Assembly (NCBI GenBank): GCA_019058365.1
Contig: JAHPZE010000003.1
Span: 259,448 to 323,447 of the forward strand
From: Promethearchaeota archaeon
GTDB lineage: Archaea; Asgardarchaeota; Lokiarchaeia; Sigyniarchaeales; SOKP01
DNA length: 64,000 nt
Direction: 5' to 3'
In this document: piece after piece, positions 3,797 to 29,843 of the stretch
Numbering within the stretch: position 1 is the stretch's first letter
Layout of the letters: every line of letters begins with the position of its first letter
Notes under the pieces: model-generated
Database searches by the model: none
Seen by the model: the letters and a program-made list of their open reading frames with translations, nothing else
What the model was told of the DNA's origin: nothing
Translations under genes and position numbers: made by a program

Positions 3797-5389
3797 ATGA
3801 AAAAATATAAGATTCCTCAATATTTTAACAAAAAGTTGAAAGTTTTTGGAATTTTAATTATATTTCTAATTATTTTAGTTAATTTTGCCTCCTTTACTAA
3901 TTTTAATTTTAAAGCAACTTACCCTAATACAAAAAATAATCCAAAAATGTCCTGGTTTTGGGCAACACTAGAGCTTACAAACCCAAGTGAGGTACATAAT
4001 AAGCGATTCTATCATAATTCACTTGTTTCTATAAAAGGTCATCTTTACAATAAAATTGATGGAAGTAATAAATCAGGAATAAATGTGGCTATTGAAGTTA
4101 ATGATGTTTTAGATATGGGTTATACTGACATTACCGATTCCTGGGGAAGATTTGATATAAATTACATAATTGATCCTTTACTTGATATTTATTCAAGTCA
4201 TAAAATAGAAGTAATTGTAACCGATTCAGAACCGGGTGGTTCTGGGAGTGAAATTGAATATCTCAATTTCTATACAATTGAAGTAAATGCATCATCATAT
4301 TTTAATATAGTTTCGCATGATGATACCTCAATCCCTAAATTATGCGAAGAAGATTTCAATCTCAATGGGTTTTTATATTATGATAATGGATATGGAATCC
4401 CTTCTGTGAGTGTTAATTATTATTGGTTAGCTGGTTCTTCAATTATCTCTCAAGGTTCCTTTCTTACTGGTTCTTCAGGCTCTCTTACGAATCTACAAGT
4501 TCCAATAACAAGTGAAAGTTATTTAACTCTTAAATTCAATTACTCAAATGCTCCTTATGTTAATTACTCTGAAGCTTCTATAACAAATATTAAAGTATTT
4601 TCGAATGTAACATGGGCTTTAACGTTCGATTACATGCCTAGAATAGGAGATACGTATAAAATAACTGGAACATTGAAGTCTAAGACTAATCCTTCTCTAA
4701 GAATAAATGATAGAGAAATCGAGTTTTATTACAACGGAACTTTAAAAGGTACCGTAACAACAGCTTCAGATGGCACATTTTCATTTAGTTTTCCAATTAT
4801 CGCTCCAAATGGGACTGCATCTATTCAAATTCAATTAATACATGATGTTATTGGAAAACATATTAAGTATTTACAATATATAATAGTTCAGCCCGCTCCT
4901 TCAACAATTACGGAAGCACGCCCATTACCTCCATTTTTTTTATTTTCTGTAATTTTTTTTCCAATTTTAGCCGGTATTATTGCAGTACTAGCTGTATTTG
5001 GATACAGATATTATAAAAAACAAGAAAAAGAATCTCGGGTAGTTTCCCTTCCACTTGAATCAAAAATTATTAATCTTAAAATTCTTAAAGATACCGGACG
5101 GTTGGAAGAATCAATATCATATTTATTCAATGCAATTTATATGGATTTAATTAATGCTAAATATAATAGAAAGAGAAAAGAAAATGAAACAATTAGAGAT
5201 TTTGCTATTATATCAGTAAAAGAATTAAAACTAACTCCATCATCAATTTATCCTTTTATTCAAAAAGTGGAAGAAATAATATATGCAAAACCTTATGGTA
5301 TAACTGAAAAAGATTTCTATAATACCTGTGGTTTATTTTCACCAATATATCTTCAATTAACGGGATATAATTTTGTATTAACTTTTTAA
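3797..5389 (+). CDS. Membrane-anchored protein with Ig-like extracellular domains and C-terminal DUF4129-like cytoplasmic domain
   Basis: N-terminal hydrophobic helix, beta-rich middle, TM helix FFLFSVIFFPILAGIIAVLAVFGY, then ETIRDFA...EEIIYA motif. Confidence 0.65.
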   Translation: MKKYKIPQYFNKKLKVFGILIIFLIILVNFASFTNFNFKATYPNTKNNPKMSWFWATLELTNPSEVHNKRFYHNSLVSIKGHLYNKIDGSNKSGINVAIEVNDVLDMGYTDITDSWGRFDINYIIDPLLDIYSSHKIEVIVTDSEPGGSGSEIEYLNFYTIEVNASSYFNIVSHDDTSIPKLCEEDFNLNGFLYYDNGYGIPSVSVNYYWLAGSSIISQGSFLTGSSGSLTNLQVPITSESYLTLKFNYSNAPYVNYSEASITNIKVFSNVTWALTFDYMPRIGDTYKITGTLKSKTNPSLRINDREIEFYYNGTLKGTVTTASDGTFSFSFPIIAPNGTASIQIQLIHDVIGKHIKYLQYIIVQPAPSTITEARPLPPFFLFSVIFFPILAGIIAVLAVFGYRYYKKQEKESRVVSLPLESKIINLKILKDTGRLEESISYLFNAIYMDLINAKYNRKRKENETIRDFAIISVKELKLTPSSIYPFIQKVEEIIYAKPYGITEKDFYNTCGLFSPIYLQLTGYNFVLTF

Positions 5390-5943: not shown

Positions 5944-7698
5944 ATGGTGAAACCAGGAAAAGCAACACAAAAGAGTATCAATATTTCTAAAGGGATAATT
6001 TTTACGTTTCTAACAATATATCTAATCATTTTTGGAATAATTATTAGTAATTTTACTGTGATTTTCCAACAAGAAAAACCGGAAGTTTTACCTATTATTG
6101 TAACTTATATCCCCATGCTATGTTATTTGGGGTCAATTTTTAGTGGTATCACTTTTATTGTATTTTTAAGAAATACCACAAAACAAAGGGTACAAGAAAC
6201 TCAATCAAGAAAGAAAATTAAATCTGGATCGTTATATAAGCAGGCTCTGTTTGTTGTTATATTTATTTTTGTGTTCATTCCTTTATTTTCTCCTTTGATA
6301 GACGGAGGCACAAACAATCAATACAACTCAATATATAATACTCAGTACTGGAATGGTGCTGGAGACTTTAAACTCGCAATTGAAAATGACGGATATGAAG
6401 TAATGGCAGTACAATCTAGTTTAAGTGCTACACAACGGCTAGATAAATCAATCTTATTAATTTTATTAGGTCCAAATCAATTTTACGATCCTATATTTGA
6501 AGTGCCTTATTTTATTAATTTCTTCAATGGTACAAATTCCCTTCTAATATGTCACGACCATGGATCTACAAGTACTTTATTATGGGAAATTCTAATAGCA
6601 GGTGCAATTGCGCAGGTTCAAATCCCAATAACAATTTTTCCCAATGGAATATTGCGAGACAATGCTTCTTATGATACGACTCCAGAATTTCCAGTTATTC
6701 AAAATTTTGCTGCTCATCCAACAACAGCTGGAATAAGTAAAGTAATTCTTTCACGAGCATCTTGTGCTGTGGGGGGACCTTTTATTGATGCTTTTGGTTG
6801 GACTTCTATAGGTTCTACAACCGATTACGGATTTATTGATAAAGCTCCATTTAATGGAAGATATGATTCTCCCAATGATGATCTTAGTTTAGGTTTCATG
6901 AGTGCTATTACATCAATAGCAGGGTTCGAAGATTTTCCCTTAGCTAACCTTCCCCTTGGAGGTTATGCCCAAAGTGTATTTTTAGCAAAAGATAGCGGAA
7001 AACAGCGAACATTCGTATCTGCGGATGCTAGTTTATTTAATAATGAATTAATTAATGATGCTTCATATGATAATTTACAATTTGGATTAAATATCATTGA
7101 ATGGTTAACATATGTAAATGAAGGAAAAAGTAAGGATGATTGGATTGTAGTGTTTGATGAAGCACATTTAAGACCAGAAGGTTCAAGAGATCTTACATCC
7201 GCAGGAATATTTGGATATATTATGCAGTATATAGTACACTTATCCACAAATCCTATCACATTATGGATTTATCCACTTCTAGCGTATTACTCATTAAGGA
7301 AATACCTTCCTAAAAAGGATAAAAAGAAGGAACAAGAAAAAATCGCAGAAGAAGAAGAAAAGAAAGAAGAAATGGCACGATTTCGAACATCTTCTTTTTT
7401 TGCTCAAAAGATTGAGGAATATAGAGATAAAATGAAATATGGAGATGCATTAAAACTACTTTATAGAAGATTAGAACGAAAATTGCATGGGCAATTAGGA
7501 GGGGTAAAGATTACAACCCAAAAGGTGATAAATTTAGTAGTAGCAAAAAATCCATCAACCACAAAATTAAAAATAAGAAGATTAAGTAAATTTATGGATA
7601 GAATTTTGGCAATTAAAGAAGGAAAATCTAAAGTTAAAACTGAACAAGATTTCGAAGAATTATTTTTCGAGATGGGTTGGGCAGTTAATAATATTTAA
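5944..7698 (+). CDS. Membrane protein with DUF4350/GldG-like extracellular domain
   Basis: Three N-terminal TM helices; SIYN..WNGAGDF, ADASLFNNELI, DNLQFGLNIIEWL, VVFDEAH motifs; lies directly before moxR. Confidence 0.6.
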   Translation: MVKPGKATQKSINISKGIIFTFLTIYLIIFGIIISNFTVIFQQEKPEVLPIIVTYIPMLCYLGSIFSGITFIVFLRNTTKQRVQETQSRKKIKSGSLYKQALFVVIFIFVFIPLFSPLIDGGTNNQYNSIYNTQYWNGAGDFKLAIENDGYEVMAVQSSLSATQRLDKSILLILLGPNQFYDPIFEVPYFINFFNGTNSLLICHDHGSTSTLLWEILIAGAIAQVQIPITIFPNGILRDNASYDTTPEFPVIQNFAAHPTTAGISKVILSRASCAVGGPFIDAFGWTSIGSTTDYGFIDKAPFNGRYDSPNDDLSLGFMSAITSIAGFEDFPLANLPLGGYAQSVFLAKDSGKQRTFVSADASLFNNELINDASYDNLQFGLNIIEWLTYVNEGKSKDDWIVVFDEAHLRPEGSRDLTSAGIFGYIMQYIVHLSTNPITLWIYPLLAYYSLRKYLPKKDKKKEQEKIAEEEEKKEEMARFRTSSFFAQKIEEYRDKMKYGDALKLLYRRLERKLHGQLGGVKITTQKVINLVVAKNPSTTKLKIRRLSKFMDRILAIKEGKSKVKTEQDFEELFFEMGWAVNNI

Positions 7699-7770
7699 TC
7701 ATATTTAAAAAAAAAAATTAAGAATAAAACAAATAAAAAACTAATTAAAAAATAAAGAGGTTATAAATAA

Positions 7771-8751
7771 ATGGAAGCTCCAGATAAAGCAAAATATTAT
7801 GACCATGAAGAAATAGATGTTACACCTATTAGGGAGATTACTCAAGAAGTATTAAGTGAGGTGAGCCGTGTAATTGTTGGTTATGGAGAAATTCTGCAGC
7901 AACTCTTCATAGCTCTCCTTGTAAATGGGCATGTACTCCTAGAAGGAGTACCAGGACTAGGTAAAACGGTAATGGCAAAAACATTCGCAAAAACTCTTGG
8001 AATATCGTTTCGTAGAATCCAATTCACCCCTGACCTACTTCCAGCTGATATTACTGGCACTAAAATATTTGATCAAAATGAAGGTGCGTTTGTCCTTCAA
8101 AGAGGACCCTTATTTGCGAATATGGTTCTCGCTGACGAGATAAATAGAGCTGCTCCTAAAACACAATCTGCGTTACTAGAAGCCATGGCCGAACGTCAAA
8201 TAACCATTGAAGGGCAGACATTAATATTGGAAAAGCCCTTCATTGTTGTTGCAACTGAAAATCCAGTTGAAATGGAAGGAACTTATCCACTACCTGAGGC
8301 ACAAATTGATAGATTCTTATTCAAACTTTGGTTAGATTATCCAGATCAAGATGAAGAAGTAGAGATTATGCGTCGACAAATCTCAGGTGAATCTCCATCA
8401 GTTGATCCAATTACAGCTGGAGAAGAAATTCTTGCAGCTCAGAAAATTATGAATTTAGTATATATTGATGATAGAATTCTAAAATACGTTCGTGATATTA
8501 TACTGAAAACGCGGAATCATCCACAAATTGCTCTTGGATGTGGTCCTCGGGCTTCATTGACTTTAATGAAATGTGCTAAAGCTCGTGCAGCAATACTTGG
8601 TCGATCATATGTTACTCCTGACGATGTAAGAGCATTAATCGTGCCTGCGTTAAATCACAGGATTCTATTAAAACCAGAAGCTGAATTAGAAGGTCTTGAT
8701 GCACAGAGTGTTCTTAAATTAATTGTAGAAGAAATACCCGTCCCTATTTAA
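7771..8751 (+). CDS. moxR: MoxR family AAA+ ATPase
   Basis: HVLLEGVPGLGKT, RIQFTPDLLPADITG, LADEINRAAPKTQSALLEAM, EGTYPLPEAQIDRF. Confidence 0.95.
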   Translation: MEAPDKAKYYDHEEIDVTPIREITQEVLSEVSRVIVGYGEILQQLFIALLVNGHVLLEGVPGLGKTVMAKTFAKTLGISFRRIQFTPDLLPADITGTKIFDQNEGAFVLQRGPLFANMVLADEINRAAPKTQSALLEAMAERQITIEGQTLILEKPFIVVATENPVEMEGTYPLPEAQIDRFLFKLWLDYPDQDEEVEIMRRQISGESPSVDPITAGEEILAAQKIMNLVYIDDRILKYVRDIILKTRNHPQIALGCGPRASLTLMKCAKARAAILGRSYVTPDDVRALIVPALNHRILLKPEAELEGLDAQSVLKLIVEEIPVPI

Positions 8752-8861
8752 CCCAGTAATTTTTCTCTTTTATGGTCGTAGTGTTTAAAAAAAATTAGAA
8801 GATAAAAAGTGGTGGAGATATTATTTTAGGAGGTAAAGGAAGAAGTTTAATTTTATTTGCA

Positions 8862-10151
8862 GTGTTTTTTCTTACTGCTGGATTTGCATTTGTAAATTAT
8901 TTCTTGATCTATTTTGCCGTGTTATTGCTATTTAGTACAATCATTAGTTTACCGGTTTTTTATTATAAAATGAACGTAGAGGAATTAAGAGTACATAGAG
9001 AACTAGAAAAAGAAAAAGTATTCAAGGATGATTTTGTTCATGTTAAAGTAGTGATTGAAAACATAGGGCGCAATAGCTTTGATTTTATTGAAATTAGGGA
9101 TAATTACAACCCACAGCTATTTAGATTAATTTTAGGGGAAAATTTTATATCTACTAGAATTGGACCGAAGAGTACAATTAAATTTTCCTACGTACTTGAA
9201 CCAAGAGTTAGAGGTGAATATGCTCTCGGACCCTTGTCGGTAATAGTTAAAGATAGATTAGGTTTTAATTCGGTTGATAGAATTGTACCAGATAGTGTAA
9301 CAGATATTCTTATCTATCCACCTTATGAAGATATTAAAAGAATTGAAATTTTAGGCTCAAAAAGATCCTTACAACTTAACTATGGTGTACAAAGATCTAA
9401 GCAGAAAGGCCTTGGTTCAGAATTTTATGGTATGAGAAAATATGTATTTGGAGATCAATTTAGACTTATAGATTGGAAAGCAAGTGCTCGAGCTCAAACA
9501 CTAATTGTAAAAGAATTTGAAGATGAACGAGATGTAACTGTTATGATTTTAGTAGATTCTTCAGAAACAATGGCAGGTGGAGCAATTGAAAATACTAAAT
9601 TTGAATATGCTATAAGAGCTTGCATGCTTTTAACAAAAGTAGCATTAACAAGAAGGGATAATGTAGGTGTTTTTACATTTTCAGATAAAAAAAATTTAAA
9701 TTTCTTGAAGCCAAATAGTGGAGAAGAACATTTCTACCAAGTTTTGGATTTTGTTGCTAGAATAAAACCACAGGGGAAATGTAAATTTGTTGAGGCAATG
9801 GATGATTTTACAAAACGCTTTCAAAAGCGAAGTTTGGTTTTCGTTATATCTGATTTAGAAGCAAATCCTAAAGATATTTCTCAAGCTATAAAAAAGTTAG
9901 TTCCGTTTAATCACACAATTATAGTAATTAACCCGTTTAGTCCATGGTTTGAGATTCATGAAATAGATTTATCTTCAACAGATAAAGCTTTAGCAGAAGC
10001 TATAAGTGAAGAAATGATGGAACACATCCTAACTATTAGGCAGGGACTTCGAAATTTGGGAATAAATATAATATCATGTGGACCTGATGATATGATGAAT
10101 CAAGTTTTAAGTAATTATATGGAAGCAAAGAAAAAGGGGAAGGCGTATTAA
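8862..10151 (+). CDS. DUF58 / vWA domain protein, MoxR partner (true start may be about 8820)
   Basis: GSEFYGMRKYVFGDQFRLIDWKASAR, VKEFE, MIDAS-like VDSSETM, VISDL. Confidence 0.9.
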   Translation: MFFLTAGFAFVNYFLIYFAVLLLFSTIISLPVFYYKMNVEELRVHRELEKEKVFKDDFVHVKVVIENIGRNSFDFIEIRDNYNPQLFRLILGENFISTRIGPKSTIKFSYVLEPRVRGEYALGPLSVIVKDRLGFNSVDRIVPDSVTDILIYPPYEDIKRIEILGSKRSLQLNYGVQRSKQKGLGSEFYGMRKYVFGDQFRLIDWKASARAQTLIVKEFEDERDVTVMILVDSSETMAGGAIENTKFEYAIRACMLLTKVALTRRDNVGVFTFSDKKNLNFLKPNSGEEHFYQVLDFVARIKPQGKCKFVEAMDDFTKRFQKRSLVFVISDLEANPKDISQAIKKLVPFNHTIIVINPFSPWFEIHEIDLSSTDKALAEAISEEMMEHILTIRQGLRNLGINIISCGPDDMMNQVLSNYMEAKKKGKAY

Positions 10152-10154
10152 AAA

Positions 10155-11633
10155 ATGGCTCGTGGATATCTATTAACTTTAAAAATTATCAATCTTGCTA
10201 TATTTTCTTGGTTATTTATTATCTTTTTAACATCAATTTTTGATTTCAATGAAGTAGTTAGCACTGCTGATAATCAATTAGTTATATTAGCCTTTTTTGG
10301 GGCAATACGCAATATTTTTTCTTATATAATTTTTGGTGGGGGTATGGTTATAGCCTTCGCATGTGCTGTATTTACAGGATTTTATAACGGGTATATCTTT
10401 GGTCTAATTCAAGGTTTTTTTCAAAAATATTTAATTTCATGGTTTTCATTTGATCTAGAGCATATTCGGGAGCTATTAGGCAATGATACATTCCTATTAC
10501 AAAATCTAGGATTACAACATATTCCTAAGTTAATAATGGGCGAAACTCAAGTATTATTTAGTGATCTCTATTTATTTATCTTTCAGATTCTGATCCTTAT
10601 TTCAATTATATATGCAATTAGAGCATTTTTAAAAAACGATCCAAAGCATTCGCTTGTTGCCATTGGATCAATAGTCCTTATGATTATTGTTCCTTTAATG
10701 GTGGAAGGCTTAAGAAAAATGTTGAATTTAATCAATATTCATATTACTTATTTAGATGAAATGGTTAACCCAGTCAACCCTAGTTTAACTGAAATACCAC
10801 TCGATGAATTTTTTGCGTTTATAGCTAGTCCTGCTATCTCATTTGCTATCGTCTCTTACATTTATTTAGAACTTGCGTTCCAGATTAATTATACTGATAC
10901 TGTAACAAAACCCTCTTTAGAAAGAAGTGATAGACTCGAAGCTCAGTTAAATATTCTCTCAAGAGAATCATACTTTATTACAGCTAATATTGATAAAATA
11001 AAGCAAGAAGCTAAAGAAAGAATCAAGGAATTGGAATCAGAACAAAAAGAAGGATTAGTCATCGGAAAATTTTTCGCAAAGACAGGCAAACGGTTTTCAT
11101 ATATAAAAGAAATGATAGAAAAGAAAAAATTAGAAGAAGAAGAAAAAAAATTAGTTACTGCTGCATCTAAAACAAGACGTCTGGGGAGGTATATAGATCG
11201 CCTTTTTCGAGAGGATTCTGAAGCTAAAGATACACTAACTGCAAGATCATCAGCCCCTAGGGCTCGAAATTTAGCAACATCTACAATAATCAACTTTATT
11301 TATCGTGTAGGTTTACTGTTAATTATAAGCTTCATTATTATACACCCCCACTGGTTTTTAAAAACAATATTACAATTACCTCCCGCAATTTCTGAAAGTG
11401 TTGTAATGTATTCTCCCGAAGTTATCATTATTTTACTAGGACCAATTATGGTGCTTTTTCCAGTAATTTCTAAATTAATTTCATTTATCAAACATAGAAA
11501 TTTAATAATTCGGTTACAACAAGAAGGGCGTATAAAAGAACTTTTAACATCTGTTGGAGACTATGTTAAAAAAGAAGAACTTGAAGCTCCAGTAGAGGAA
11601 GAAGCTGAAGCGGTTGCAACTGAATCTGCTTAA
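10155..11633 (+). CDS. Polytopic membrane protein with cytoplasmic coiled-coil loop, last gene of the MoxR operon
   Basis: 492 aa, about 7 hydrophobic segments, charged central region, 3 bp after the DUF58 stop. Confidence 0.6.
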   Translation: MARGYLLTLKIINLAIFSWLFIIFLTSIFDFNEVVSTADNQLVILAFFGAIRNIFSYIIFGGGMVIAFACAVFTGFYNGYIFGLIQGFFQKYLISWFSFDLEHIRELLGNDTFLLQNLGLQHIPKLIMGETQVLFSDLYLFIFQILILISIIYAIRAFLKNDPKHSLVAIGSIVLMIIVPLMVEGLRKMLNLINIHITYLDEMVNPVNPSLTEIPLDEFFAFIASPAISFAIVSYIYLELAFQINYTDTVTKPSLERSDRLEAQLNILSRESYFITANIDKIKQEAKERIKELESEQKEGLVIGKFFAKTGKRFSYIKEMIEKKKLEEEEKKLVTAASKTRRLGRYIDRLFREDSEAKDTLTARSSAPRARNLATSTIINFIYRVGLLLIISFIIIHPHWFLKTILQLPPAISESVVMYSPEVIIILLGPIMVLFPVISKLISFIKHRNLIIRLQQEGRIKELLTSVGDYVKKEELEAPVEEEAEAVATESA

Positions 11634-23698: not shown

Positions 23699-25171
23699 TT
23701 GGGTGCATTCCAATGGTTAATGAAAAAAATAACTAAAGTATTTGGACGATCCACTAATGCGTTATTTTATACACTTTTATATCGAGAAATTCTTAAAGAG
23801 GTTAATGAAATTACTAATAATGAAAAAGAGAGCCTTATTATCCTCAGAGAAATCGGAAAAAGATCAGCTTATGAATCATGTGAACGCCATTCAAGTATAT
23901 TTAAATTTATGCCTGGGAACCCCAAAAAAGTTTTAGATTATTTTGAAATTCTATGGGTTGTTGTTTTTGGAAGAGAATTAGAAGATTATACTTATGAAGA
24001 AATTCCTAAGGAGGAATCAAAATATAATGATTATATTTTAAAGATTAAAAATTGTCCAATTTGTGCTGGATATGGGCAAGATAAGGAAGATTCCTTTGAT
24101 TTTGATAAAGTAAAAGATGATAAATCAGAAGGTTTAGCGTGTGGTTTATGTGGAATGTTAGAAAGTGTAGCTAATTTTATTTTGAAAACAAAACGGAACG
24201 ATTATAGAATCCAAATAGTTGAACAAAAATGCATAGCTCGGGGTGGTGAATGTCTTCAATTTATTTGTAAAATTCATGATTATAAAGAATGGAAAGAACT
24301 GATGTCTTCTAGAACTGAAGAAAGGATTTCAACAGGGATTTATTTTGAAGAAAGTTTAGAAGAGGAAGAGATTGTTCAAGAAACCAAACTTGATATCATC
24401 GATAAACTCCAAGATGTTATTTCAATTGATAAATTAGAGGAATACCTTGATGAGCCTTTGGAATCAATAAAAGAGAGAGTTTCTGATATTATCAGAGATA
24501 AACTGAATATGGAACCTACACATTTCTTTGACTATTTCCGTAATTACGAGGATGATATGATTCGGATAATAGGATACCTTGGAACTCATCTTATAAATGA
24601 ATATGGGGGATTATTGGAAAAATCCTTTAAGAGTGAATGGTTTGCAAAAGTTTTTGGCTACATCTTCAAACAATTAAAAGAAATGACTCTATTATTCATT
24701 CCTTTAGATGTAATCCGTGATTATAATGAACTCTTAGTCAACTTTCTTGAAGGAGTAGCACCACAAGAAATGGTTGAGAATGTGAAACAATTTACCAGTA
24801 AAGATACAATAACTTATATCTTCGAAGGGGCTCAAATGGCGCTGCAGAATTTAGGAATTGATTTTTCTGAATTAAAAGAAAATGTTTGGGAAGAATTAAA
24901 AGCAGAACGGGAGGATGGATTAATATCTTCAGAAACTTCCACTATTGATAAAACTCGTGAGCGTGTTCCTCAGATTATTAACATCCTTCAGGAATTACTA
25001 ATGATAATTAATGATATTCTTACATTACCAATTAGAGTATTAATTTCAGAAAGCCATTATGGATTAAAGACAGCAATTAATTCCGTCGTTTCAGAAGAAG
25101 AAGGTTTATACGGTTCAATACGCGGGAAACTTGATAACATTTTTGACCAAATTCAAGATATAAGAAAATAA
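23699..25171 (+). CDS. V4R-domain protein with long helical C-terminal extension
   Basis: LREIGK, CPIC, CGLCGMLE, EQKCIARGGEC. Confidence 0.65.
   Translation: MGAFQWLMKKITKVFGRSTNALFYTLLYREILKEVNEITNNEKESLIILREIGKRSAYESCERHSSIFKFMPGNPKKVLDYFEILWVVVFGRELEDYTYEEIPKEESKYNDYILKIKNCPICAGYGQDKEDSFDFDKVKDDKSEGLACGLCGMLESVANFILKTKRNDYRIQIVEQKCIARGGECLQFICKIHDYKEWKELMSSRTEERISTGIYFEESLEEEEIVQETKLDIIDKLQDVISIDKLEEYLDEPLESIKERVSDIIRDKLNMEPTHFFDYFRNYEDDMIRIIGYLGTHLINEYGGLLEKSFKSEWFAKVFGYIFKQLKEMTLLFIPLDVIRDYNELLVNFLEGVAPQEMVENVKQFTSKDTITYIFEGAQMALQNLGIDFSELKENVWEELKAEREDGLISSETSTIDKTRERVPQIINILQELLMIINDILTLPIRVLISESHYGLKTAINSVVSEEEGLYGSIRGKLDNIFDQIQDIRK
25055..25171 (+). repeat. Copy 1 (in use) of the V4R gene 3' end
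   Basis: Encodes HYGLKTAINSVVSEEEGLYGSIRGKLDNIFDQIQDIRK*; recurs at 26918 and 28321. Confidence 0.92.
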
Positions 25172-25418
25172 GTCCATGAGACCTAAATAAGGTGATTTTA
25201 GACTCCCGCAATTCAATCTTCTTCTATACTCCATTTTTCTTCAATTTGGTCTGGAGTCATAACATTAAACCAACTCCGAAAATCTCACCTAAAGTTAGAG
25301 GGATAGTATGTTTTTTTAATAATGAAGGTGTATATATTTTTTAAGCTCATACCCTTTTTTCTCATATTTATAGTCATATCTCTGCGATATTTAGATAAAA
25401 TGGGTTTTAAATCTTTCG

Positions 25419-26690
25419 CTACCTTCTTTTTTTAAGGAATCCTTTTAATTCATCTTCATAATATGTGAATCTCCAGAAATCTCCATCGGATTTAAATTCC
25501 CCACAAAAAGGACAAAAGTCAAATTCAGTTGATATTATATTTTTACAAAAGCCACACTCAACATTTATTATTTCTTTTTTTTTTAACTTCTTTAAAAATT
25601 TTTTAAAATGATTTTTGTAAGGGAATTGTTTATCGAGAGCTAATGCTATAAGTTCAGCATTATCTATCTTTTTGGCGTTTTCTTTTATTGCTTGATATGC
25701 TTTTATATTATTGATTTCTCCAAGAGCCCATGCGGCAGCTTGACGTATTATCAAATCAAGCGATTCCATTTTTAATAACTCTATGAGAGGTTCTATTGCA
25801 CTTATATCTTTCAATTTACCAAGTGCTAAAGCAGAACAAACACGTATTTTTTTATTATTTTCTACTGAATATCGATTTTCATTTAAGAGATCTATTAGAA
25901 ACCTTATATGTTTTTTGCTACCTATTCTTCCAAGTGTTCTAGGGATTTCATATTTCCTTTCATCATCATAATCCTGATTTTTATAATATTCAATTAATGC
26001 TTCTATTGCTTTTACATCACCAATTCTAGCAAGCATTTCATGCACGTACTCTCTAACTGAATGATTAGAATCTTTTAAAGCTTCACATAAAGAATCTATA
26101 GGAAATATATCCATTTTTTCCTTATGATAAAATTGAGAAAAAACTAAATCTCTCAATTGGTTAGCCGCAGTTTTACGAACATCCTCTGAAAGATGAAATA
26201 AAGCATAGTTTAACTGTTCGATTACATTTATTCCACCAATGTTTTTTAATTTATAGATTATTGATTTTATCATATCAATATCTTGTTCCTTATATAATTT
26301 ATTGGTAAGAAGTTCAATTGCTTTAGGATTATCCCACCCTGACAAAATCTTTAAGGTAATATTAACAATTTCAGAATCATCATGATACAATGATTTTTCT
26401 AATACTTCTTGCCATGGACCTATAAATCCAGATATTTTACTAAATCCCAAGAATTCTCGTATCGCATCCTCAGAACTACTATGATTATATTTTTTACCTA
26501 TTTCCCAAAATTTCTTAGATAAATTATTAAGATCCTCTTTTTTATTCGTATGCAATGCTTCTCTCATTAATCGAAAGCTATCGCTAACTGATTGATCATG
26601 TTGGATTTCTCCTCGTTTTTCCAATAAAGCTATATATTTAATGTAACTCTCAAATAATTGTTTTTCCTTTAATTTATCTTCTTCTGACAT
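25419..26690 (-). CDS. HEAT/PBS-lyase repeat protein with C-terminal zinc ribbon
   Basis: Repeats VRKTAANQL, VREYVHEML, IRVCSALALG, IRQAAAWALG; CGFC...CPFCG. Confidence 0.8.
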   Translation of the reverse strand: MSEEDKLKEKQLFESYIKYIALLEKRGEIQHDQSVSDSFRLMREALHTNKKEDLNNLSKKFWEIGKKYNHSSSEDAIREFLGFSKISGFIGPWQEVLEKSLYHDDSEIVNITLKILSGWDNPKAIELLTNKLYKEQDIDMIKSIIYKLKNIGGINVIEQLNYALFHLSEDVRKTAANQLRDLVFSQFYHKEKMDIFPIDSLCEALKDSNHSVREYVHEMLARIGDVKAIEALIEYYKNQDYDDERKYEIPRTLGRIGSKKHIRFLIDLLNENRYSVENNKKIRVCSALALGKLKDISAIEPLIELLKMESLDLIIRQAAAWALGEINNIKAYQAIKENAKKIDNAELIALALDKQFPYKNHFKKFLKKLKKKEIINVECGFCKNIISTEFDFCPFCGEFKSDGDFWRFTYYEDELKGFLKKRR

Positions 26691-26917
26691 GGAGTTCAGA
26701 TTCCCTCTTTTCTTATATTCAGTTGTTTCTCATAATTTAAATATCTTTTCGATCATCTTATATATATACCTTATATAAAAGACCCACTTCACTCTCTTTA
26801 TCCATAATTTCAATAAAAGTATAAAATCTTTAATTCAATTCTTCTCCCAAACTTTCTTTGAATCTTTCTACTCGTAGAATCATCTTTCACTTGATTAGAA
26901 TTTCTCAATCTTTAGGT

Positions 26918-27016
26918 CATTATGAATTAAAAACAGCAATTAATTCGGTTGTATCAGAAGAAGAAGGATTGTATGGGTCAATACGTGGGAAACTTGATAT
27001 CATATTTGACCAGATT
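26918..27016 (+). repeat. Copy 2 (orphaned) of the V4R gene 3' end
   Basis: 86/99 nt identical to 25055-25153; reads HYELKTAINSVVSEEEGLYGSIRGKLDIIFDQI. Confidence 0.92.
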
Positions 27017-27219
27017 TCTAATTTCGGATAGAATTTTTTTCGACTAGGATTACCTGAAACTGCTAGTATTACATCTTGATCACTGTCAGGTCTATGTTCT
27101 TGTTTAGCTCGTGAACCTGCGGGAGTAATTTTCGCTAAACCTAGTTTAGAATTCTTTAACACGTTGGTAATGCTTATCAATTTTTTTTTGTAATGTTCAT
27201 TTGGTAATTCTTGCTTCAT
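27017..27219 (-). pseudogene. Truncated Pol-beta superfamily nucleotidyltransferase, N-terminal fragment
   Basis: AGSRAK......DSDQD motif; the rest of ORF 26920..27219 is only the antisense of repeat copy 2. Confidence 0.65.
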
Positions 27220-27328
27220 GAGTAAAAATAAATCACTTACCTATTTATAACATAACACCTTTAGTTTCAAATTGGAAATGATTTAAGTAATTTATTAGAT
27301 TAGTTTAATATATATTAACATTAACACA

Positions 27329-28246
27329 ATGAGAAATTCAAGAATGGATATGGGAAATATTCGCGAAGTTGGTAATAATTTATTACAAAAACATGCGATT
27401 TTATATAAGAAATTGATTCAAATTCCAGAATCAAGAGAATTGATTTTCCTTATTGACATTGAGAAAGATCTTAATATTGGAAAACCTCGTTTCCTAAATA
27501 GAAAATACACATGGTCTAAAGAATTATTAACAAAATTACACGATCACCTGGAAGATGTGTGGAGTTTTTTTGATTCATATTCACATTGGGTAGACAATTC
27601 TTTGATATCAATTATTTCATATACTAAAAGAAGTGAATCCAAGAAGTCAATTATTTTTTTATTAGAAAATGATGTATGGGAAACTGATGAAGTTTATGGT
27701 GATTATGTAATTGAGAAAATGGAAAGCTTCACAATGGTTAGCTATTTTCGTTTCAATAAGAAAATGAAATCTTTTAAGATTGATACAATTGAGAATTCAA
27801 AAATTGAGAATTGGATATGTAATGATGTGTTTACACAAATTCAACAACAATTCTCTTACATCTGTTCTAAGATAGAAACTGAAATTAAAACCTGTATTGA
27901 GGAAAAATATCACAAAAAACCAAAATTATTGATTACATCTGATTATTTCAAGGAACAACTAAATAAAACTAAAGAAATGGCAGAATATTGGCCTGAGGCA
28001 GCTTTTTTAAGTATAGGGCGAATTTGTGAGATGTGGTTACTTACACAACTTAATCTGGAAAGTACTGGATTTAATCAGGATTTACTAAAATTAGCTGAGA
28101 GATATAATATAGTTGACAAACACGAGTTCAAATTTTTAAAGAAAATTAGGAAAAACTACAATGATTTGAAACATAAGCGATATTATAATATAGACAAAGG
28201 TTTAATATTCAGCTTAATCAATTTTTTTTTAAAAATATTCAAATAA
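27329..28246 (+). CDS. Hypothetical protein with C-terminal HEPN/DUF4145-like domain
   Basis: AAFLSIGRICEMWL ... IRKNYNDLKH pattern. Confidence 0.5.
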   Translation: MRNSRMDMGNIREVGNNLLQKHAILYKKLIQIPESRELIFLIDIEKDLNIGKPRFLNRKYTWSKELLTKLHDHLEDVWSFFDSYSHWVDNSLISIISYTKRSESKKSIIFLLENDVWETDEVYGDYVIEKMESFTMVSYFRFNKKMKSFKIDTIENSKIENWICNDVFTQIQQQFSYICSKIETEIKTCIEEKYHKKPKLLITSDYFKEQLNKTKEMAEYWPEAAFLSIGRICEMWLLTQLNLESTGFNQDLLKLAERYNIVDKHEFKFLKKIRKNYNDLKHKRYYNIDKGLIFSLINFFLKIFK

Positions 28247-28320
28247 CAATAAGTACTTCAAAAGTGATTTTGCTATAGAAACCAATTGGAAATCCTAAAT
28301 TTTGGCTAATATCTTTGTTT

Positions 28321-28361
28321 TTGATAATATATTCGATCAAATTCAAGAAATAAGAAAATAG
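28321..28361 (+). repeat. Copy 3 (orphaned, probably oldest) of the V4R gene 3' end
   Basis: 35/41 nt identical to 25131-25171, all 6 differences at third codon positions; reads DNIFDQIQEIRK*. Confidence 0.85.
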
Positions 28362-28391: not shown

Positions 28392-29843
28392 TTATTTCAT
28401 ATTTTTTTTGTTACCATTCTTAATTTCTTTATTCTTGTAGATTTCATAAAACCAATTAACTATATATTGAAAGAAAAATCGTTCACGAAGAACATCATAA
28501 TGAGATTTTTCTTTTAAACTTGTTAATTTTGCTATGTCTTCTGATTTTAATTTTCCTTCAACAATTAAATTCATTCGAACTTTGTATTGATCAATCATTT
28601 TTATAGGGCGTAAAATTGCTGAAATTGCATCTGATATTTTATCTATTAATTCATTAAACTCATTCTTAAAAAAATATCGATGATCAATATCATTTACTAA
28701 AAAATTTTTCACATTTTTTAATATTACTTCTTTTTTGTGATAATTAATTAACTCTTCTTTACTCAAACTCTCTACAAGAAAATCAATTAATCTGTTAATT
28801 GTATTTTTTTTAATGGAAAACTTTAATAACTCGGTTTGCAACTTTTTGATGAACTGCTTCTTCAAAAATTCTTTAAATTTAATTATGATAGCCTTATTCT
28901 GCCTATTATCTGAACAGATTTCAATAACTTCTCCTTTAGGTGTAGAATATGTAAAACCTAAACCTTGTGGACCCAAACCTCCAAGAAGAACCATTGATAA
29001 GCTATAAAAATTATAATTATCCTTGTCTAAAATTTTCTCTAAATTTTTTGAAATGTTTCTAGGAGAGACAAGGTGTTTTTTAATTTCACGGTGCTCATGT
29101 TCTTCTTCTATATCATAATAATATGTCCGATATTTATAAAGAACATCAAATTCGAGGAGATCTTTAGCTTTAGTCGGGAACTGGTCTTTTTGCTTTTCGA
29201 ATTGATAATTGTTAAATAGAAAGTTCTTTTCAAAAATATTAACAAAGTTATCTATAGGACTTAAATATCTAATGTTGAGGCCATAAATGGTATATTGGTC
29301 AAAAAAAATGTTTTTAATGAAGTGTATTAATCCATTGTGATCGGGAAAATAAGAAATTGGACTTTTAACAAAATAATTGTAAAGATCTCTAGGCATTATT
29401 TCATAAACATATAATATAAATGAATTCGATACTTTACCAAACAAGTCATTCAAATTTGCCATGAATAACCTGTCTTCCTTGAGATGCCTAAGTTCTTGTC
29501 TTTCAAATTCAGTGATTTCTTTCTCTAATAAACTGTATTCATTAAAGAATCTTAAAATGTCAATAATCTCTCCTAATGCTGAGGTTTGATATCCAGTAGA
29601 TATTTTATCGGTACAGATCAATAGCAATTCTGAAATAATATTGAAGCGGTTGGGAATTTTTTTTACATCCATAAAAATATTAAATTCAACAGATGCATTG
29701 AATAGAATTCTAAAACCCTCAAATTGTCCAGATTTAAGACATATTGAAAGTTCTTCATAATATCTCTTTTCAAGCAATTTTTGGTTTTCTATTCTTAAAA
29801 TTTTTGATTTCAGCTGTTCAAAAAGCTGGTTTGATGGCATCAT
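28392..29843 (-). CDS. Hypothetical protein
   Basis: 483-aa ORF with Gly-rich core GGLGPQGLGFTYSTPKGEVIEICSD; downstream of the roadblock gene. Confidence 0.6.
   Translation of the reverse strand: MMPSNQLFEQLKSKILRIENQKLLEKRYYEELSICLKSGQFEGFRILFNASVEFNIFMDVKKIPNRFNIISELLLICTDKISTGYQTSALGEIIDILRFFNEYSLLEKEITEFERQELRHLKEDRLFMANLNDLFGKVSNSFILYVYEIMPRDLYNYFVKSPISYFPDHNGLIHFIKNIFFDQYTIYGLNIRYLSPIDNFVNIFEKNFLFNNYQFEKQKDQFPTKAKDLLEFDVLYKYRTYYYDIEEEHEHREIKKHLVSPRNISKNLEKILDKDNYNFYSLSMVLLGGLGPQGLGFTYSTPKGEVIEICSDNRQNKAIIIKFKEFLKKQFIKKLQTELLKFSIKKNTINRLIDFLVESLSKEELINYHKKEVILKNVKNFLVNDIDHRYFFKNEFNELIDKISDAISAILRPIKMIDQYKVRMNLIVEGKLKSEDIAKLTSLKEKSHYDVLRERFFFQYIVNWFYEIYKNKEIKNGNKKNMK

Follow-up and report, generated by a model that had tools for sequence, protein, structure and literature searches.

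Stacked 3' ends of a conserved lokiarchaeial gene as probable scars of a homing-endonuclease element of the mobile-ORF type

Introduction

Why does the 3' end of one conserved gene recur twice downstream of that gene, in the same orientation and with unrelated genes between the copies, on the chromosome of a lokiarchaeon? The question is raised by a 64,000-nt stretch of DNA (here called the window) from Promethearchaeota archaeon (GenBank assembly GCA_019058365.1, contig JAHPZE010000003.1, positions 259,448 to 323,447 of the forward strand). The gene, here called A, lies at 23699-25171 (+) and encodes a protein of 490 aa. A first-pass annotation of the sequence described the locus as an integrase-free cassette array that had grown by homology-facilitated illegitimate recombination or by a recombinase acting in trans. 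We find instead that the repeated tails are probably scars of an element of the "mobile ORF" (mORF) type, which targets A by means of a homing endonuclease. The candidate nuclease gene, here called B', survives in the window only as a remnant and is intact in related genomes.

Results

Gene A is a conserved host gene that, by whole-genome search, is single copy in the 4.7-Mb assembly, with no additional full-length copies in the genome. It has no family match in Pfam or NCBIfam, so its earlier label, V4R, finds no backing in these libraries and is a weak language-model lead only (score 0.79). Tail copy 1 (25055-25153) and tail copy 2 (26918-27016) are identical at 86 of 99 nt, and of the 13 differences, 11 are synonymous and 2 are nonsynonymous (G>E and N>I). 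The encoded peptides share 31 of 33 residues, and the tails differ mainly at silent sites. Upstream of copy 2, a weaker in-frame resemblance to A extends back to ~26888, while at its other end copy 2 is without the last 15 nt of the A tail and its frame continues as SNFG to a stop at 27031. Tail copy 3 (28321-28361) is identical to the final 41 nt of A at 35 positions; all 6 differences are at third positions, one of them changing D to E and one changing the stop from TAA to TAG. The end of copy 3 is 30 nt from the stop of a convergent gene, B (28392-29843). Elsewhere in the window, with both strands considered, the 41-mer tail is matched at no more than 27 of 41 positions, and in 200 Markov-simulated windows the match never exceeded 31; therefore, the recurrence of the tail is real and not due to chance. 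The positions, orientation and difference counts reported for the three tails in the first-pass annotation all hold.

We compared the window's genome (G000) with its sister genome (G005) within a search set of 54 species genomes of the same Lokiarchaeia-type Asgard genus. In G005, both flanks are 97 to 99% identical to the window and the segment corresponding to 25172-28320 is lacking, which is an empty site with a distance of ~36 nt between A and the convergent B. G005 has a single A tail, which can be aligned with copy 1 and also with copy 3. In about 15 of the 20 same-genus loci that were fetched, A and B are convergent neighbors separated by 20 to 70 nt, so empty sites are present in other relatives too. 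B itself (28392..29843, -; 483 aa) is the native neighbor that forms the right edge of the island; it is fast-evolving and 94% identical at the amino acid level to its G005 homolog. The idea that A and B are paralogs was rejected.

Within A, nt 1 to 807 (23699..24506, +) are native, with 9 differences from G005 (~99% identity). From nt 808-822 to the stop, identity to G005 is abruptly reduced to 66 to 89%. This left junction (24506..24520, +; codons ~270-275), at which ...EP(E/K)(H/N) is followed by FFDYFRNYEDD, is the proposed homing or cleavage site. Trees of the two parts place the gene differently. In the tree of the 5' part, G000 pairs with G005 (support, 0.998). In the tree of the 3' part, G000 is placed away from G005 (support, 0.989), with alleles linked to B', (G022,(G050,(G018,G067))), B' being the name we give to a gene of 489 to 571 aa whose 3' end follows A in G050, G018 and G067. 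On this phylogenetic evidence, the 3' part of A (24520..25171, +), which includes copy 1 (25055-25171) and keeps the frame intact, is of foreign origin, and it would represent an element-borne, recoded replacement of the last ~216 codons. At the right edge, G000 and G005 differ at 28320, 28322, 28328, 28331 and 28334, and from 28335 onward 77 nt, covering the remainder of copy 3 plus 50 nt beyond it, are 100% identical to G005. Copy 3, which consists of the last 13 codons of A plus the stop at the original chromosomal position (28321..28361, +), is therefore chimeric: 28321-28334 is donor-type, and the sequence from 28335 is native, so that 27 nt of native coding sequence survive. Based on the empty site in G005, the identity break in A and the right edge at 28334/28335, we conclude that the foreign block is ~24510-28334, or ~3.8 kb, and consists of the replaced last ~216 codons of A and a 3.15-kb insert.

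The tails do not appear to have arisen within this genome. Copy 2 is identical to the tails of G018 and G067 at 89 of 99 nt, to its own copy 1 at 86 of 99 nt and to the sister G005 at 80 of 99 nt, and it carries the GKL signature of B'-linked alleles. Because of this signature and because the tails of G018 and G067 are its closest relatives, we interpret copy 2 (26888..27016, +) as what erosion has left of the tail (codons ~443-485) of an older A allele of the element type and not as a local duplicate. The grouping of copy 2 with alleles of other lineages, and more generally the earlier proposal that each tail comes from a different allele that was once functional, are thus borne out. A tandem duplication of A or of its end followed by decay, or a chimeric assembly, would account for direct repeats in one orientation, and the assembly of the window's genome has an estimated contamination of 6.6%. 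Such an origin is scarcely credible, however, given the ~98% identical flanks around the empty site of the sister genome, the closer relationship of copy 2 to alleles of other species than to copy 1, the single-copy state of A and the presence of the same architecture on single contigs of several independent assemblies. A strict association of GKL with B' was also considered and rejected: G024, G044 and G052 lack B' and carry GRL, and other residues are seen at divergent B' loci.

The first-pass annotation implied that the array had grown stepwise in this genome. This is not what the right edge indicates, since copy 3 begins with 14 non-native nt, after which 77 nt are those of G005. Because of these 14 nt, and because the flanks of G000 and G005 differ by only 1 to 2%, a two-generation array was probably imported ready-made in one event.

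The gene that accompanies the foreign type of A is B'. We examined it at eight loci, in G018, G067, one G050 contig (G050:C160) and five contig loci from a metagenome scan (L077 to L081). In every case, B' is convergent to A and ~45 nt from the stop of A; it is intact in G018, G067, G050 and L077 to L080 and has an internal stop in L081. In the window, the 230 nt past the stop of A are homologous to the 3' end of B', which in G050, G018 and G067 occupies the corresponding place after A. Here B' is reduced to a remnant of 62 codons (25213..25401, -; codons 428-489 plus the stop, with one in-frame TGA), which retains only part of the helix-turn-helix (HTH) tail described below and has lost the catalytic domain. 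By tblastn, the segment 25216-25401 (-) is 71 to 77% identical at the amino acid level to the intact B' of G018 and G050, and the remnant is 41 nt from the stop of A, matching the placement of intact B' elsewhere. With the window included, B' is at the same place in 9 of the 9 loci that have it. The array was therefore misdescribed as integrase-free and lacking a recombinase, in that it contains a remnant of a gene, intact in relatives, that resembles homing endonucleases of the GIY-YIG type.

In six of the eight B' loci, a displaced fragment of A lies in the orientation of A beyond variable cargo upstream of B'. These fragments start at codon 276 (L079), 380 (G018), ~411-416 (L080), ~439 (L078) and 463 (L081). 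The minimal unit is that of L081, which consists of A, B' with its internal stop, a 28-codon A tail and a Roadblock gene. Tails are stacked on a large scale in G050, a metagenome-assembled genome with about 7% contamination, in which there are at least 8 fragments of A, several of these as pairs that share a contig, together with two remnants of B'. The cargo in G050 includes SMC-like ATPases, a RiboL-PSP HEPN protein, DUF4062, a subtilase and B12-radical-SAM genes. Since the cargo differs across the loci of relatives, the earlier description of the site as a hot spot at which variable cargo has repeatedly accreted is well founded.

B' is patchily distributed. A collection of 5.8 billion proteins contains 12 close homologs (≥56% identity), all of which are unnamed or "hypothetical" and have no Pfam domain. 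Of 121 genomes of the order, 32 (the window's among them) contain a member of the B' family, and many copies are broken; a patchy distribution with many broken copies is typical of selfish nucleases. B and B' were considered as diverged alleles of one gene, and this was rejected on finding no similarity between them by BLASTP or hhalign. An A fragment in G004 (C149, L048) was likewise rejected as an orphan tail: it belongs to a whole second locus (M24-Roadblock-...-A) with 71 to 83% identity, and the G004 bin (9% estimated contamination) probably mixes two genomes.

The displaced fragments point to one position in A. Four long fragments, three in G050 (L043, L044 and L047) and one on metagenome contig L079, start within ~10 nt of one point, ...(GAAC)ATTTYTTTGAYTAYTT (codons 274-279), and each is preceded by unrelated DNA. 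The foreign tract of the window starts 5 to 15 nt from this common start. The chance of a random crossover landing at that point in a 1.47-kb gene is ~1 to 2%. The codon ~274 site is common to the left ends of the elements and the displaced fragments, but their right ends have no sequence in common. Since five independent left boundaries are at the same nucleotides of A, a site-specific break is favored. In addition, B'-linked A alleles share silent changes and the change EH>KN (2 amino acid changes) exactly at the junction, which is how immunity of a carrier allele to its own nuclease would be expected to look in the sequence.

The coincidence of left boundaries bears on a competing explanation, in which A is a passive hot spot where homologous recombination within A is combined with an illegitimate join and B' is merely frequent cargo. 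The right ends and cargo differ in every locus, the remnants vary from 13 to 216 codons in length, and B is only 48 to 63% identical among species, providing poor homology for two-sided exchange, all of which such a process would accommodate. It does not account for five independent left boundaries within ~10 to 15 nt in a 1.47-kb gene, and this coincidence is also the reason that free homology-facilitated illegitimate recombination, one of the two drivers suggested in the first-pass annotation, is set aside. The constant position of B' in all nine loci and its predicted nuclease fold further count against a passive hot spot, which we consider unlikely.

A second left edge was observed among the short remnants. 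The window at 28321-28334 and L043 (G050:C43) at 4415-4450 contain the same remnant of 12 to 13 codons of A with the same left edge, TT followed across the edge by TGATAAT, at codon 478. The adjacent cargo differs, and the remnant in G050:C43 adjoins a fragment of B. This edge could reflect shared descent or a secondary cut site. Motifs resembling AACATTT(C)TTTGAT occur in native A alleles at nt ~818, close to the left edge of the long remnants, and at nt ~1437, close to that of the short ones. Formation of the 41-nt remnant by a deletion mediated by these repeats was considered and rejected, as the remnant retains D479-N480, which the deletion would remove.

We used a whole-protein model of B' and an AlphaFold model of its catalytic domain in structure searches. 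The domain model has a pLDDT of 89 and a pTM of 0.85. Compared with 48,161 PDB representative chains by VIA-align, it matches the catalytic domain of I-TevI first (Z, 8.4; rmsd, 2.5 Å over 89 of 92 residues; 21% identity). Only three chains reach a Z of ≥5 and all are nucleases, the other two being the restriction endonuclease PD-T4-3 (Z, 5.8) and EndoII of phage T4 (Z, 5.7). The GIY-YIG domain of UvrC ranks fourth (Z, 4.6), further GIY-YIG nucleases rank lower in the list, and the best chain not labeled as a nuclease has a Z of 3.9. The motif pattern of B' is VYxI...Y(F/I)G.T...R...H ... E ... LN, in which Y107, Y125, G127, R136, E227 and N241 are invariant across orthologs and across paralogs of 22 to 29% identity; H140 is kept in orthologs and in some, but not all, paralogs. 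The spacings from R136 to H140 and from E227 to N241 match those of I-TevI. Between the R/H and E motifs, B' has a helical insert of ~85 residues, and the protein is about twice the size of I-TevI. In the whole-protein model, residues ~375-489 resemble tandem HTH domains of the AraC type (Z, 6.0 to 6.9), and there are weak matches of B'-family members to the Pfam families HTH_18, Sigma70_r4 and HTH_23. As a lead only, the language-model neighbors of B' are phage nucleases that combine GIY-YIG and HTH domains (score 0.89). Based on the predicted structures, B' is a GIY-YIG protein with a tandem-HTH tail, and it represents a new divergent family that no sequence library recognizes.

A more distant member of the family is associated with a duplicated end of a different gene. 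In G020 (L083, C16), a B' paralog with 28% identity (8828-10291, -) lies between a gene of 349 aa (7628-8677, -) and a duplicate, of 63 to 66 codons, of the 5' end of that gene (10445-10645, -), which is 74% identical to its source at the nucleotide level and 73% at the amino acid level. From its sequence, the 349-aa gene looks like a second target of the nuclease family, hit at its 5' rather than its 3' end. The duplicate indicates that duplication of gene ends beside B'-family genes is not unique to A, which is another point against the passive hot spot.

Two further observations concern paralogs in G125. On contig C90 (L091, 827-11492), a B'-family gene (6293-7828) lies between two full-length HdrA-like genes that are 50 to 72% identical at the amino acid level, and these could be tandem paralogs or a whole-gene version of the duplication. 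On contig C50 (L102) of this genome, which belongs to another genus, two ORFs of 136 aa (2628-2975 and 7622-7969), 5 kb apart, match the C-terminal HTH portion of B'-family proteins with equal scores and so could be repeated remnants of a nuclease gene in a further array.

Between copy 1 and copy 2, most of B' has been replaced by a gene for a HEAT-repeat protein of 423 aa (25419..26690, -; Pfam HEAT_2, 8.5e-24), for which no DNA homolog was found at this locus in 53 same-genus genomes. Between copy 2 and copy 3 are a truncated nucleotidyltransferase (NTase) gene and a gene for a protein of 305 aa. The ORF at 26920-27219 (-), previously called an NTase fragment, is so only in its first ~60 codons (27040..27219, -), which have weak matches to the Pfam families Polbeta and NTP_transf_2 (E of 7e-4 and 2e-3, below the cutoff); the C-terminal 30 residues are an antisense reading of copy 2. 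The 305-aa protein (27329..28246, +) has no Pfam or NCBIfam match. It has a 46%-identical homolog in the G050 array L043 (G050:C43, 11674-12967), where the gene for this homolog is located next to a further fragment of A and comes directly after an intact NTase gene of the Polbeta type (120 aa). The Polbeta NTase and the 305-aa type of protein are probably a two-gene module of which only the second gene is intact in the window. No toxin or immunity families were found in the interval by Pfam. No reverse transcriptase domain is present in the interval either, and the mismatches between tails involve all bases, in agreement with the earlier statement that the array is not a diversity-generating retroelement.

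The cargo was also examined with regard to a classical integrative element, in which a tyrosine or serine integrase, lost or encoded elsewhere, would have made tandem integrations using an attP that mimics the 3' part of A and an attB at codon ~274. The fixed left boundary and the displaced fragments that begin at the same core fit such an element, as does the intact A, because the end of a gene used as an integration target is commonly restored by the incoming element. However, Pfam detects no integrase or transposase domain, and no tyrosine or serine recombinase gene was found, in the cargo ORFs of the window, G018, G006 and five G050 contigs; no A tail was found on viral contigs; the right ends are without common sequence; and the only conserved gene of the element encodes a protein with a nuclease fold. 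We regard an integrase-based origin as very improbable.

The interval between A and B varies in other ways among relatives. In G006 (L027, 1634-4665), G009 (L031) and G063 (L053), a different insert of ~3.2 kb lies between A and B and carries a penicillin-amidase-family gene (864 aa) and a gene for a protein of 144 aa (55% identity between lineages). Neither an A-tail copy nor a B' remnant is detectable in the inserts of these three genomes. In G019 (L030) and G022 (L038), B is missing and the Roadblock gene is ~190 nt directly after A. G022 has a recoded junction of the B' type and a 3' part of A that clusters with B'-linked alleles, yet it has no B'. The state of G022 and G019 could be a loss stage of a homing cycle.

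Discussion

The tails of A are probably scars of an mORF-type homing-endonuclease element that targets A, and the mechanism that we propose is as follows. The element would consist of the recoded last ~216 codons of A, the convergent B' and whatever cargo lies beyond B'. Putative cleavage by B' of an element-free A near codon 274 would be repaired from a carrier genome, copying the recoded 3' part of A, B' and downstream DNA, so that the A of the recipient would stay intact. The native 3' part would be pushed downstream as a dead fragment and would then erode. A later invasion would displace the tail of the previous element in turn, stacking the tails by age with cargo between them. According to this scheme, the array in the window would represent two generations and would be decayed, with B' down to 62 codons, copy 2 derived from the older element and copy 3 being the native end, now 41 nt. 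Most likely, an ancestor with the empty site would have received the ~3.8-kb block in a single transfer, with exchange on the left at A nt 808-822 and on the right either inside the final ~27 nt of A or in the spacer that precedes B. That B' cleaves A at this site and drives the transfers is what we infer from the common breakpoint and the recoded junction in the sequence.

Several observations weigh against this interpretation. At the junction, G022 and G024 carry the recoded version without B', and the divergent, B'-bearing L078 has a different version. The full-length A of G050 switches from host-like to B'-linked sequence nearer to nt 900-950 than to nt 820. The shorter remnants start at codons 380, ~411, ~443, 463 and 478, so that later erosion has to be assumed. 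To form arrays, the element would have to invade alleles that are already recoded, for which the scheme does not account. Flanking duplications were found at none of 14 other distant B' paralogs. The window's own genome has no intact B'-family gene, so nothing is active there now. With regard to the fold, the GIY-YIG profile (Pfam PF01541) has no match at E of ≤10 in 10 B'-family members, NCBIfam and PDB sequence-profile searches do not recognize B' as GIY-YIG, Foldseek returned nothing significant for either B' model, and the assignment comes from one structural aligner, the motif pattern and the language-model lead.

The closest parallel to a homing-endonuclease element in A is provided by the mORF elements of fungal mitochondria, known from atp6 of Allomyces macrogynus and from atp6, atp9, cox2 and nad3 of Glomus sp., in which an endonuclease ORF (LAGLIDADG, or GIY-YIG in atp9) is located at the 3' end of a conserved gene (PMC3630166). 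In these elements, a foreign in-frame C terminus that diverges mostly at synonymous sites replaces the native one, the native C terminus is displaced downstream and matches that of a close relative, and the close relative has an empty site (PMC3630166). The window has the same arrangement: a foreign in-frame C-terminal segment replaces the native one, the displaced native end (copy 3) matches the sister G005 from 28335, an endonuclease ORF lies between the two C termini (as a remnant here and intact in relatives), and close relatives have an empty site. Unlike the mORF elements, however, the element described here is on an archaeal chromosome and not in an organelle, its nuclease gene is convergent rather than fused or codirectional, kilobases of cargo (HEAT, NTase, defense-like ATPase and radical-SAM genes) lie between the nuclease gene and the displaced tail, successive invasions would leave multi-tail arrays, and its nuclease belongs to an unannotated family that Pfam does not detect.

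The domain order predicted for B' by the models, an N-terminal GIY-YIG domain and a C-terminal HTH module, is that of I-TevI and the Seg proteins of T-even phages. SegF and SegG home without an intron and co-convert flanking markers, the carrier allele being protected by silent polymorphisms. SegB is reported to promote segmental amplification of neighboring genes (PMC13096335). Unlike B', phage Seg genes sit between genes without a duplicate of the target gene end, and B' differs from Seg proteins and I-TevI in its helical insert of ~85 residues and its cellular host. Integrative elements that target tRNA genes or other 3' ends also leave direct repeats of the target 3' end flanking the insert, keep the gene intact and accrete in tandem. 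The locus of A differs from these in that no integrase was found in the cargo ORFs scanned, in its long repeats (up to 650 nt, 75 to 88% identical), where a short identical core would be usual, and in its undefined right ends. In the C-terminal displacement of Rhs and contact-dependent inhibition (CDI) systems, new 3' parts acquired by recombination likewise push older ones downstream together with adjacent partner genes, but those parts are hypervariable toxin tips with immunity genes, whereas the tails of A encode nearly the same peptide.

Free-standing GIY-YIG enzymes are a phage specialty, and a search of the literature found no report of such an element in Asgard archaea. What is new here is the archaeal chromosomal setting, the convergent nuclease gene, the kilobases of cargo with multi-tail arrays and the profile-invisible nuclease family. 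The proposed element would extend a type of selfish element to a cellular archaeal genome, and it offers a concrete mechanism for one "integrase-free" hot spot, in which an element drags and stacks cargo and so seeds a variable island. The nuclease family, which sequence libraries do not recognize, is present in about a quarter of the order's sampled genomes, and the element points to DNA exchange between species of Lokiarchaeia. B' and its site in A are a candidate pair of a long-site nuclease and its target and thus a possible genetic tool; we know of no genetic system for these organisms.

More tentatively, and with somewhat less than even confidence, we suggest that lokiarchaeial (Asgard) chromosomes are subject to a gene drive by this unrecognized family of free-standing GIY-YIG homing endonucleases, which, by cleaving a conserved gene of the host and so compelling its repair from carriers, would repeatedly move multi-kilobase cargo, including defense-like genes, between species. 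If so, islands of up to tens of kilobases, such as those in G050, would be built in this way and marked by stacked gene ends, physical exchange of DNA between related Asgard species would be frequent, and these organisms would possess a natural site-specific entry point for DNA.

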